Assembly: GCA_963797095.1 (NCBI GenBank)
Contig: CAWCNY010000002.1
Span: 64,001 to 128,000 of the forward strand
From: an uncultured Chloroflexia bacterium
Lineage (GTDB): Bacteria; Chloroflexota; Chloroflexia; QHBQ01; JADMIH01
Reading direction: 5' to 3'
Length of the DNA: 64,000 nt
Both the position numbers and the translations under genes were made by a program. Below the pieces are notes generated by a model that worked only from the letters and a program-made list of their open reading frames with translations, had not been told where the DNA came from and ran no database searches. The stretch's first letter is position 1. Each line of letters opens with the position of its first letter. Below are positions 55,169 to 59,608 of this stretch, one piece after another.

Positions 55169-57487
55169 ATGTCTGAGCAGCTCCCCAGAGCGCAGAGAAT
55201 GCTCATTGTATCGAACAGGCTGCCGGTAACGGTTGTAGAGAAGGATGGCGGCCTGGAATTCTTCGCCAGTTCGGGCGGACTTGTGTCAGGGTTGACAGCC
55301 TACCTGGGCCGCGAACCAGGCACTGGAGATGAAGGGCGAAGGGCGAAGGGCGAAGGGCGAAGGGCGGTACACAATAATCACTCGCCACTCGCCACCCGCC
55401 ACCCCGATTCGTATCTGTGGGTCGGATGGCCCGGCTCTACAGTGGCCGAGCGCAATCAAGCGTGGTTGACGGACGACATAGCTCGCCTCAACTGCCACCC
55501 GGTCTTTATCTCCGAGGAGGAGATGGACAAGTTCTATTATGGGTTCTGCAACAGCACAATCTGGCCGCTGTTCCACTATTTCCCGATGTTCACGCACTAT
55601 GAAGAGGCTGAGTGGCAGGTCTACAAGCAGGTCAACGCGCGCTTTGCCGATGCCGTGCTGGAGGTAATACAGCCCGGCGATATCGTGTGGGTACACGATT
55701 ACCACCTCATGCTTCTTCCTGCCTTGATACGCAGCCGCATACCTGATGCCGAGATCGGGTTCTTCCTGCATATACCCTTCCCAGGCTACGAGATCTTCCG
55801 GTTGATGCCCAGGCAGTGGTGCCAGGAGATACTTGAAGGGTTGCTGGGGGCTGACCTGGTCGGTTTCCATACGCATGACTACACGCAATACTTCCTGCGC
55901 TCGGTGCTGCGTATGCTTGGTTACGAGCATACTATGGGCACTATCGTGGTGGGCGACCGCTTTATGAAGGCCGATACGTTCCCTATGGGTATAGATTTCG
56001 AGAAGTTCCACAATGCTCCCAGCACACCTGAGGTGCAGATAGAGATCGCCAGGCTGCGTGAGGTGCTGCCCGACAGCAAGATAATTCTCTCAATCGACCG
56101 CCTGGACTACACGAAAGGGATAATCAACCGCCTGCGCGGTTATGAGCTTTTCCTGAGGCAGAACCCTCAGTGGCACCGCAAAGCAGTGCTGACCCTGGTG
56201 GTGATCCCGTCGCGAGTAGGCGTGGGTGAGTACAGAGAGACCCGTGAAGGGATAGAAGAACTGGTGGGCCACATCAACGGCCAGTATGCCACCCTCGATT
56301 GGGTGCCTGTTCGATACCAGTACACCTCGCTGCCATTCGAGCAACTCGTGGCCCTGTACAACACCAGTCACGTGGGGATGGTGACGCCACTGCGCGACGG
56401 GATGAACCTCATCGCCAAGGAGTATATCGCGGCCAGTGGGAGAAATAACGGCGTGCTCATATTGAGCGAGATGGCCGGGGCCGCCAAAGAGTTGGGCGAG
56501 GCAATACAGATCAATCCCAATAGTAGAGAGGAGATAGCAGCCGCCCTGCTGCAAGCCCTGGAAATGCCACTGGAAGAGCAGAGGCGTCGAAACCTGGCGA
56601 TGCAGAAGCGCCTGCGACGTTACAACGTCGTTTCCTGGGCTGCCGACTTCGTGCGCGAGCTTGAGAATACCTGCGCAGAGCGTGATCTACTTAAATCGAA
56701 ATTGCTGGACGAGCACGAAAGCGCGCAATTGGTCTCCGATTACAGGATGGCAAAGAGGCGTCTGCTGTTGCTTGATTACGACGGCACGTTGATGGCTTTC
56801 TCGCCCGACCCACAGGAGGTACGCCCATCACAGCAGGTGATCGATTTGCTTGTGAGGTTGTGTGCCGACCCGTTGAACGATGTGGTAATCATCAGTGGGC
56901 GCGACCGGTCCACCCTCGACTCGTGGTTGGGGGCCTTGCCGGTCGGCTTGATCGCCGAGCATGGGGTGTGGGTGCGATATATGGACGATGATTGGGCGAT
57001 GACACAGCCTCTCAGCAGCGATTGGAAGATGAATATCCTCCCAGTCCTAGAGCTATCTGCGGATAGGTTGCCCGGCGCGTTCGTGGAGGAGAAAGATTAT
57101 TCGCTCGTTTGGCACTACAGGGCCGCTGACCCGGAACTTGGGTTACTGAGGTCGCAAGAATTGCTGGACCACCTGGTGAATTTCACGGCCAATATAGATG
57201 TGCAAGTGTTGCAGGGCCACAAGGTGATCGAGGTGAAAACGGGCGGGGTGAACAAGGGCACGTCGGGGCTTCTCTGGTTGGCGCGCGACGAGTACGATTT
57301 CGTGCTGGCTGTAGGCGACGACTGGACCGACGAATACCTCTTTGCTGCTCTGCCTAAGAGCGCATATACGGTGAGGGTGGGCCTTGCGGAGTTGCAGGCC
57401 CGCTTCGACCTTCCGGGGCCGGGCGATGTATTGTCTCTACTGGGCCGCCTGGCCGAGGAGTCGCCGTCGGTAGTCGGTAGTCGGTAG
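55169..57487 (+). CDS. otsA: Bifunctional trehalose-6-phosphate synthase/phosphatase (OtsA-OtsB fusion)
   Basis: VSNRLP, WVHDYHL, FLHIPFP, DRLDYTKG and RDGMNL motifs, then the HAD motifs DYDGTL and GDDWTDE. Confidence 0.93.
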   Translation: MSEQLPRAQRMLIVSNRLPVTVVEKDGGLEFFASSGGLVSGLTAYLGREPGTGDEGRRAKGEGRRAVHNNHSPLATRHPDSYLWVGWPGSTVAERNQAWLTDDIARLNCHPVFISEEEMDKFYYGFCNSTIWPLFHYFPMFTHYEEAEWQVYKQVNARFADAVLEVIQPGDIVWVHDYHLMLLPALIRSRIPDAEIGFFLHIPFPGYEIFRLMPRQWCQEILEGLLGADLVGFHTHDYTQYFLRSVLRMLGYEHTMGTIVVGDRFMKADTFPMGIDFEKFHNAPSTPEVQIEIARLREVLPDSKIILSIDRLDYTKGIINRLRGYELFLRQNPQWHRKAVLTLVVIPSRVGVGEYRETREGIEELVGHINGQYATLDWVPVRYQYTSLPFEQLVALYNTSHVGMVTPLRDGMNLIAKEYIAASGRNNGVLILSEMAGAAKELGEAIQINPNSREEIAAALLQALEMPLEEQRRRNLAMQKRLRRYNVVSWAADFVRELENTCAERDLLKSKLLDEHESAQLVSDYRMAKRRLLLLDYDGTLMAFSPDPQEVRPSQQVIDLLVRLCADPLNDVVIISGRDRSTLDSWLGALPVGLIAEHGVWVRYMDDDWAMTQPLSSDWKMNILPVLELSADRLPGAFVEEKDYSLVWHYRAADPELGLLRSQELLDHLVNFTANIDVQVLQGHKVIEVKTGGVNKGTSGLLWLARDEYDFVLAVGDDWTDEYLFAALPKSAYTVRVGLAELQARFDLPGPGDVLSLLGRLAEESPSVVGSR

Positions 57488-57517
57488 TCGGTAGTCGGTA
57501 GTCGGTAGTCGGTAGTC
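57468..57517. repeat. Heptamer tandem repeat (CGGTAGT)x7 overlapping the otsAB stop
   Basis: The TAG stop at 57485-57487 is part of the repeat. Confidence 0.93.
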
Positions 57518-57628
57518 CAGAAGTTCCTAGTTCCTAGTACTGGTTTGGGGTGCGAAATGACAAGATGAGCCTTGGTGAGTTAGGATTAAGTTGCCCATGA
57601 TCCAAAACTCAACCGGAGGCTCAATAAC

Positions 57629-59265
57629 GTGATAATCGAACGATATGACCCTGTAAACCTCTTTGAACTGGTGCCCAAGTTGCAATTGGAGATGGAACCG
57701 GAGCTAGCTGAGTTGGACCAGTTGCTAAAAGACGATGAGATCTTCGAGCAGGTCAAGGCTGACCTGGCTAAGCGTTATCCTCACACCCTGGTTAGGGGGC
57801 GTCACTCCACCCCAGTTGAGGTGATCCTGCGTATGCTCATCGTTCGCCGCCTGTACGATTGGAGCTACGAACAAACCGAACACTTCGTCTCGGATAGCCT
57901 GGTCTTACGCCAGTTCTGCCGCCTCTATCTCCAGCCCGTCCCCGACGATACCACTCTCATCCGATGGGCCAACCTTGTCGGTCCGGATACTCTTGCCAGG
58001 GTCAACGATCGAGTAGTGGAGTTGGCCACTCAACTCAAGGTGACTAGGGGGCGCAAACTGCGCGTGGACAGCACCGTTGTGCAGACCAATATCCATTATC
58101 CAACAGACAGCGCCATTGTTGGTGATGGAGTTCGTGTGCTCAGTCGGCTGTTGCACAAAGCCAAAACCGTGCTGGGAGAAAAGCTGGGAGAAGTGGGAGA
58201 AGGGACGACCATAGGGACGACCATCCTGAAGGGCGGCCTGAAAGGGGCATTTCGCAGCCGTACCCGCTCGGTCCGGCGTATCGCTCAACAACTTCATCGG
58301 GTGGCCCGCCGCAAAGGGGAAGAGGCTGCCGAGCAACTCAAGGCAGCCTATGCCAGGCTGCTGGGTATCGCCCAGGCCACTGCCAAGCAGGCGAATCAAG
58401 TGCACGATGCTCTCGCCACCCTCGCCGACACCTTCTCCAGGGCCAAGCTTACCGAGCACTCTGCAACCCGGGCACGGCAGGGGCAGGTAAGGCGCATCAT
58501 CGAGCAGTTGGAGCACTTTCTGCCTCTGGTGGGCAGGCGATAGAGCAGGCTCGACGCCGAGTGCTGCAGGGCGAACCTGTTCGAAGTGGCGAGAAGTTGC
58601 TCTCTCTGTTTGAACTATCATAAGCCGTATCAGGGTTATCCTTAATAGCGGTTCGAAGTGGCGAGAAGTTGCGCTCTCTGTTTGAACCGCACACCCAGGT
58701 CATCCAGCGTCACAAGGCAGGCAAGCCAACCGAATTCGGACGCAAAGTGTGGTTGGGGGAAGTTGAGGGAGGGATCATCAGCGAGTATCGATTGATGGAC
58801 GAGGGCGGGGGCTTGGACCTGATGGAACTGCCGAGAAGCTTAGCCACACATCAAGAGCGTTTCGGGCACCCACCGGACATGCTGGCTGGAGATCGTGGCA
58901 CCTATTCGAGGGCGAACGAGGCGTTGGCACGCCAACTGGGGGTGAAGCGGATTGTGTTGCCACACACTGGGCGAGTGAGCAAGGAGAGACAGGCACTGGA
59001 ACATCAGCGCTGGTTCAGATGCGGGTTCCGGTTCCGAGCGGGGATCGAAGGGCGGATTCGGGTGCTGAAGAGGGATTACGGGCTGGAGACAGGTCGGGAT
59101 CACGAGGAGGAGGGGATGTGGCGAAGGGTAGGGTGGGGTATTGTGACAGCGAACCTGGGGAAGATCGCTGATACACAGATAGCACGGGCAGCACAACGCA
59201 GGGCTGGAGCCAGGGTCGGAGCCAGGACCAGGGCTGGGATAGCGGTGAGGAAGCAAGCGGCGTGA
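57629..59265 (+). pseudogene. DDE transposase (ISNCY/IS5-like), broken by a 1-nt deletion near 58532 and a 72-bp insertion
   Basis: RVDSTVVQTNIHYPTDS, SLFEPHT, KPTEFGRKV, GDRG and FRAGIEGRI..LKR motifs spread across frames. Confidence 0.88.
58579..58687. CRISPR. Single repeat-spacer-repeat unit (37/35/37 bp) inside the transposase; candidate ectopic spacer integration
   Basis: GTTCGAAGTGGCGAGAAGTTGC(T/G)CTCTCTGTTTGAAC at 58579-58615 and 58651-58687 flanks TATCATAAGCCGTATCAGGGTTATCCTTAATAGCG. The structure is certain; the CRISPR origin is inferred, and no cas genes are in the window. Confidence 0.5.
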
Positions 59266-59608
59266 ACCAGATTAGGTGGCGATGTGCCAAGTGCCAACCT
59301 ACGACACCCAGAAACACGATGGTGCGAAATATCAGTCTTGATGGCAGTGTCACGTGCTGCTCCGGGCCTTGCGACCGCATTTCGCACCACAAACTAGTAC
59401 TACAGCCGCAGTTAATCAGTTGTAATAGTCTGAACTCGATCTTGCAAAGAGCAATGTCCGATCTTGACTTGCCTGTCCGATAACCCCTGATTACCCTGAC
59501 ATTGTCTGGCTGGTCAAATCCTGGCTGCAGCACTGTTTGCCTTGTTTACCTTCAGTCACTTGGACTCGGTCATTCGCCAGCGATATCACCCTTGAACAAG
59601 GATAACGG

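Follow-up and report, generated by a model that had tools for sequence, protein, structure and literature searches.

The window analysed here is a stretch of 64,000 nucleotides from the genome assembly of an uncultured Chloroflexia bacterium (GCA_963797095.1, contig CAWCNY010000002.1, positions 64,001 to 128,000 of the forward strand). It contains an insertion sequence (IS) in whose transposase gene a 37-nt segment of coding sequence stands twice, on either side of a 35-nt insert. The features concerned are listed here in window coordinates, except for the last, which is given in those of the host assembly (G000).

57533-59402, + strand: whole IS, 1870 bp including the 72-bp insertion, delimited by BLAST of both genome copies with 1.5-kb flanks
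57535-57559, + strand: left terminal inverted repeat of the IS (pair I1), 25 nt, 92% complementary to 59378-59402
57629-58543, + strand: N-terminal transposase fragment, 304 aa, ended by a frameshift, from the open reading frame list; Pfam DUF772, E 3.5e-13; NCBIfam NF033593 (ISNCY_1), 237.7 bits, profile 2-254 of 444
58528-58536 (near 58531), + strand: 1-nt frameshift between ...FLPLV and QAIEQA..., located by comparison with homologues
58579-58615, + strand: copy 1 of the 37-nt segment (direct repeat family D1), encoding VRSGEKLLSLFE, with the ancestral Leu codon CTC kept
58616-58650, + strand: spacer-like insert, 35 nt, 40% GC
58621-58623, + strand: TAA in the frame of copy 1, carried by the insert; the codons 3' of copy 1 are CTA TCA TAA
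58651-58687, + strand: copy 2 of the 37-nt segment, with a derived CGC at 58672-58674, the frame then continuing PHTQVIQRHK...
58651-59265, + strand: C-terminal catalytic transposase fragment; NF033593, 182.2 bits, profile 274-443 of 444
59378-59402, + strand: right terminal inverted repeat of the IS (pair I1)
G000 contig C6, 1002841-1004710, - strand: second IS copy, 1870 bp, 3 mismatches, no gaps, unrelated flanks

The carrier is an IS of the ISNCY_1 type (IS5-like, DUF772), as its inverted repeats and NF033593 transposase identify it. With that family it shares the 25-nt terminal inverted repeats and, in two pieces, positions 2-254 and 274-443 of the 444-position profile; it differs from intact members in that its gene is dead and, being split, yields two fragments neither of which attains the cut-off of 325 bits, whereas the intact homologues L021 and L022 reach 489 and 485 bits. 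The C-terminal fragment is 69% identical to a homologue in an Actinomycetes metagenome-assembled genome (MAG). Two independent lesions have killed the gene, the frameshift and the stop-bearing insert. The frameshift lies about 50 nt upstream of the duplicated unit, at a point where homologues keep ...FLPLV(A/D/E/G)QAI.QA.RRVLQGE... in one frame and the frame of the window IS changes; it is common to both genome copies, which align without gaps, and to contigs of the sequencing runs X1 and X2 (0 differences).

The IS copy on contig C6 differs from that in the window only at 57540, 57542 and 59059, the first two of these positions falling inside the left terminal inverted repeat. It bears the identical unit of repeat, insert and repeat, down to the single base by which the two 37-mers differ, and the same frameshift, so the event that produced the unit predates the last duplication of the IS. 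Besides these two copies, the G000 assembly holds a third, fragmented and more distant relative of the family (C5:480733-482070; 47-63% amino acid identity), and no intact transposase of the family was found in it. The IS is present at two loci, yet its gene carries two lesions; copying after the insertion event may have proceeded by mobilisation in trans or by gene conversion. Upstream of the left end of the element, at 57466-57517, many short contigs, contributed by each of the four metagenome runs, stack to a summed depth of 9-44, which indicates a motif common in soil data.

The arrangement at 58579-58687 is as the original prediction described it: a 37-bp duplication around a 35-bp insert, with a one-base difference between the copies. 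The copies are identical at 36 of 37 positions, the sole mismatch being T at 58601 against G at 58673, and because the outer neighbours of both copies differ, the duplication is exactly 37 nt long. The insert is indeed AT-richer than its surroundings (40% GC against 57.8% in the remaining IS) and introduces the in-frame TAA at 58621-58623; only 3.5% of random 35-mers from the genome are as AT-rich. The terminal dyad and inner GAGA/UCUC stem that had been taken as repeat-like are present in the sequence, but the fold that they would form is weak: at -10.6 kcal/mol (z -1.67) it was equalled by 16 of 200 shuffled sequences, so that it beats shuffles only mildly and the hairpin is not significant.

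The structure is backed by contigs of public sequencing runs. A contig of run X1 (record 5) spans 58370-58648 with 0 differences and thus includes the frameshift and extends from copy 1 into the insert, and one of run X2 (record 9) spans 58447-58597, also with 0 differences; both may stem from the source sample and do not count as independent support. No contig of runs X2 and X3 crosses the insert. That the unit is an artefact of assembly or sequencing we consider scarcely credible: no point in its favour was found, the identical unit stands at two loci on different contigs, and run contigs without a single difference extend from the first copy into the insert. An origin of the insert from a sequencing adapter was dropped on account of the same two observations, its presence at two loci and in run contigs.

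The inserted state is derived, from an ancestor that had one 37-mer and no insert. Homologous loci on genome contigs, of which 34 were fetched and 17 examined, have the single motif ...EKL(L/V)S.FEPHTQ without insert in every case examined (17/17), reading ...EKLLSLFEPHTQ at the site of copy 1, and 10 of the 17 have reading frames of 467-535 aa. Among 80 metagenome loci, the subset kept out of 218 relatives found, exactly one FEPHT motif occurs in each (80/80), 40 uninterrupted residues precede it in 74, and the combination of duplication and insert occurs in none (0/80); nor was recurrent insertion at the same site seen in other homologues (0/52 and 0/80 loci). At the DNA level, both 37-mers align to one single segment in L005, L021, L022 and L073, of which L005 comes from an unpublished genome (G022) and requires the permission of its depositors before the statement on it is published. 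An insert-less allele is present in a 259-nt contig from a different study (X6, record 22; depth 2.1), about 96% alike (9 other letters and 2 gaps), which aligns to 58544-58601 and then to 58674-58874, skipping exactly 72 nt, and which has the ancestral T at 58601. The single, insert-free 37-mer that the original prediction expected of homologues was thus found in all 97 homologous loci examined and in this contig besides. The event is accordingly younger than the divergence of the X6 lineage (about 4%) and older than that of the two genome copies, which differ at 3 of 1870 nt.

The insert is foreign to this genome. Within the 6.02 Mb the 35-mer recurs only in the second IS copy; whatever else matches is at most 13 nt long, or gapped and at chance level, and no template for it exists elsewhere in the genome on either strand; the earlier observation that it has no match in the window thus extends to the whole assembly, apart from the second IS copy. 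A diverged tandem duplication was ruled out, as the 35-mer is unlike either flank. Searches for a protospacer, which the original prediction had recommended, were fruitless: exact-match scans, which are blind to a protospacer with mismatches, gave 0 matches in viral contigs and 0 in metagenome contigs, phages yielded only chance-level matches (best E 0.4), plasmids none, and 400 other genomes of the class 0 with up to 3 mismatches allowed. Because no protospacer was found in any collection, no protospacer-adjacent motif (PAM) can be read.

The original prediction attributed the unit to the adaptation machinery of the host, and this part of it is not supported. In the host assembly (6.02 Mb in 8 contigs, 93% complete) Pfam searches gave 0 matches to Cas1 and Cas2, although the controls were positive in 7 and 6 of 14 genomes; tblastn with 11 open reading frames of the cas locus of G010, a genome of the same genus, found no cas homologue; two k-mer scans at two stringencies turned up only tandem coding repeats and multi-copy elements in place of a CRISPR array; and no relic of the array repeats of relatives was detected, the best match being 19 nt long (E 0.11). 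A host without cas1 and cas2 had been named in advance as evidence against the idea, and as written that is what the assembly contains. The absence of cas genes, the upstream frameshift and the second IS copy with its identical unit had not figured in the original prediction.

CRISPR-Cas does occur among the relatives of this bacterium. With the host counted in each case, Cas1 was detected in 1 of 26 genomes belonging to the genus and in 10 of 40 belonging to the order, and 6 of 16 scanned loci around the cas1 genes of the order hold CRISPR arrays, one of them in the same genus (G010) and one, L061, from an unpublished genome (G033). All six arrays have 37-nt repeats, five of which read GTT...GAAAC in one orientation, and their 61 spacers measure 34-40 nt, with 4 of 61 at 35 nt; only 2 of the 61 have a GC content of 40% or less, which places the insert in the tail of the distribution. 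The expected geometry of 37-nt GTT...AAC repeats and spacers of about 35 nt was therefore borne out in the order and genus, and not in the host, which has no array: it is the geometry of the lineage's CRISPR systems, not of this genome's. The G010 locus is a complete one of type I, with Cas3, Cas6, Cas1, Cas2, Cas4, Csa1 and 23 repeats, as well as weak matches to Cas8-like and Cas7 proteins. Near the cas1 gene of another genome (G034), L064:1190-1349 has a 26-nt repeat in three copies at 46-nt spacing, which is not CRISPR-like and is unlike the 37-nt arrays. Relatives of the IS are found in CRISPR-bearing genomes of the order (G039). In a Planctomycetota MAG, L047:4130-4347 is a genuine array with at least 4 repeats of 36-37 nt and spacers of 33-35 nt, situated about 600 bp downstream of that genome's homologue of the window transposase.

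How closely the duplicated segment resembles a CRISPR repeat was examined after the fact, and on these comparisons the resemblance appears modest. Against the repeats of the relatives, the 37-mer is identical at 17 of 37 positions at best, a value matched by 3.6% of random 37-mers from the genome, and its terminal score of 8/12 is reached by 0.7% of them. The pattern GTT-N31-AAC occurs 1009 times in the genome (1.7e-4 per position). In the real arrays the last bases of the leader, immediately 5' of the repeat, are GGGG or GAGGG; the unit is preceded by ...GAACCT and, on the other strand, by ...GGGTGTGCG, and a leader-type run of G is absent beside it on both strands. A genome-wide scan for repeats of 24-50 nt around spacers of at least 20 nt returned no other single-locus unit, the remaining hits being tandem coding repeats or multi-copy elements. 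Two repeated units of G000 may be mentioned in their own right. A 35/33/35 unit (AATAGAAAAGGGAGCC...) stands at five loci of G000 (C1:60026, C1:572885, C3:47145, C3:563486 and C5:167315) and probably belongs to some larger element or operon present in several copies, and repeats of 33-35 nt (AGTCCCGAAGGGACGTAAGAG...) about 33 nt apart at C2:650504, C3:206472 and C6:157895 look like a dispersed element of the REP or MITE kind with internal hairpins.

When a duplicated target encloses unrelated DNA, it bears the mark of strand transfer at two staggered points with the gaps then repaired, and the reading that we favour is a single integrase-type event of this sort. Strand transfers 37 nt apart would have placed 35 bp of foreign DNA in the transposase gene, and repair of the gaps would have left the 37 nt in duplicate. 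Cas1-Cas2 is the machinery known to duplicate a repeat-length target around an insert of spacer length, and the likeliest enzyme would be the Cas1-Cas2 complex of a type I system with 37-nt repeats, such as those of the order and genus, acting off target on a segment with the repeat-like ends GTT...TTTGAAC. Since the carrier is mobile and has relatives in CRISPR-bearing genomes (G039, and L047 with its homologue close to an array), the event need not date to this genome; it may have taken place in an earlier host or in an ancestor of the IS, at some time between the split of the X6 lineage and the separation of the genome copies, and the unit would now be an inert relic of it, inside a dead IS and a genome devoid of CRISPR-Cas. 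Which enzyme acted, in which host and in what sequence of events is inferred; that Cas1-Cas2 made the unit off target, in a previous host or an ancestor, and that the IS carried it from then on is unproven, and our belief in it is evenly poised.

Such an event has precedents in experiment. A molecular ruler sets the distance of the second attack, so that repeat length is preserved (PMC6895254), integration outside arrays is observed in vitro (PMC6698737, PMC6895254), and off-target integration in vivo in E. coli is reported to be capable of spawning new arrays (Nivala 2018, as cited in 10.1101/148544, PMC6698737 and PMC7054753). Natural evidence for off-target integration in two other species is termed "circumstantial" in one of these (10.1101/148544), and in S. 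islandicus a restraint on Cas1 outside arrays has been proposed (PMC9456107). The nearest parallel is the neo-CRISPR locus (Nivala, Shipman & Church 2018, Nat Microbiol), which, as cited there, has in common with the window unit a spacer-sized insert, a repeat-length target duplication, a partly repeat-like site that is not a CRISPR repeat, and the outcome of a one-spacer proto-array. The window unit differs in being natural and in a genome without cas genes; its target lies inside an IS transposase gene, from which the unit was carried to a second locus; its duplication has the 37 nt of relatives that are type I-B/I-A-like, not the I-E length of E. coli; and no protospacer was found for it.

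Several observations count against Cas1-Cas2, namely the cas-less host, the rarity of cas1 in the genus, the want of a protospacer and a PAM, a leader junction that is not mimicked, and the GC content of the insert in the tail of that of real spacers. A rival account is repair of a break without any part for CRISPR: the gaps left by two nicks, or by a staggered break, at a distance of 37 nt would have been filled, with 35 bp of filler DNA captured by end joining or by template switching of the MMBIR kind, and the CRISPR-like geometry would be coincidental. Such an account sits easily with a host that has neither a cas gene nor an array, with the failure to find a protospacer and with the unmimicked leader junction, and it can appeal to a selection effect, the finding having been chosen for its CRISPR-like look. 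Templated insertions, however, usually copy nearby DNA, and neither strand of the genome offers a template for the 35-mer. Generic repair would moreover have to produce a triple coincidence, a duplication of exactly 37 nt, an insert within the 34-40 nt of real spacers and GTT...AAC ends at 1.7e-4 per position, and the genome scan revealed no other single-locus unit of such a kind. We hold break repair to be rather unlikely, though a serious competitor to off-target integration by Cas1-Cas2.

The remaining candidates fare worse. Another mobile element or integrase with target duplications of about 37 bp might have left the unit as a footprint, the element itself being very small or mostly deleted. 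The context is one of mobile DNA, and unusually long duplications of 16-28 bp are recorded for the IS1202 group (PMC10132070), where, as here, a target duplication flanks an insert through staggered strand transfer. The 37 bp nevertheless exceed that range, as the original prediction had anticipated in stating that IS target duplications are far shorter; the 35-bp insert contains no transposase and has no terminal inverted repeats; and the transposases of the IS1202 group are TnsB-like and unrelated to the DUF772/ISNCY_1 protein of the window. The unit does not fit a target-site duplication of an IS, the insert being no IS and having no copy beyond those in the two IS copies, whether in the genome, the 400 class genomes or the collections scanned; the carrier IS for its part has no long duplication at either of its insertion sites. 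A footprint of this kind appears improbable.

Less probable still, and in our view very much so, is that the unit does something for the IS, be it by exploiting a host CRISPR system as a mini-array or decoy of a repeat, or because translation skips the insert and the transposase is still made. The insert-bearing IS did reach a second locus, and mini-CRISPR arrays borne by viruses and plasmids are known (Medvedeva 2019, PMC6858448; PMC11656645), which likewise consist of repeat, spacer and repeat on a mobile element without cas genes. Their repeats are described as identical or nearly identical to those of the host (identical in PMC11656645) and their spacers as targeting related viruses; the window "repeat" matches relatives' repeats at only 17 of 37 positions and is the conserved transposase coding sequence of the element itself, in a host without CRISPR-Cas and without repeats of its own. 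The unit is no functional CRISPR array either, as it lies inside coding sequence and no cas genes accompany it. The independent upstream frameshift breaks the gene in any case, and the genome has no intact transposase of the family. A further suggestion of the original prediction, that Cas1-Cas2 may serve to disable an IS, loses ground and is not supported as a function: there is another lesion in the gene, and the IS reached a second locus with the insert in place.

The fuller reading, in which CRISPR adaptation made a one-spacer proto-array where a transposase gene happens to resemble a repeat, and in which the IS then carried this array to new loci and into a CRISPR-less genome, is one that we put forward tentatively, with somewhat less than even confidence. 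A limited literature collection contained no description of such a unit within an IS. Were the reading true, the window would hold a natural member of a kind known from experiment, one that sits in an IS, has moved to a second locus and has come to rest in a genome without CRISPR-Cas, and for which both the state before (the insert-less allele, about 96% identical) and the state after exist in nature. The unit would serve as a concrete substrate for testing what integrases of systems with 37-nt repeats recognise, and it illustrates a way in which mobile DNA could transport proto-arrays. A general screen suggests itself as well, in which isolated duplications of repeat length around inserts of spacer length are sought as fossils of adaptation, also where a genome no longer has the CRISPR-Cas system that it once had. 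If off-target integration by Cas1-Cas2 is indeed the origin of the unit, insertion sequences may both record off-target adaptation and carry newly formed arrays from one genome to another, which would give CRISPR arrays a natural way to arise and spread.
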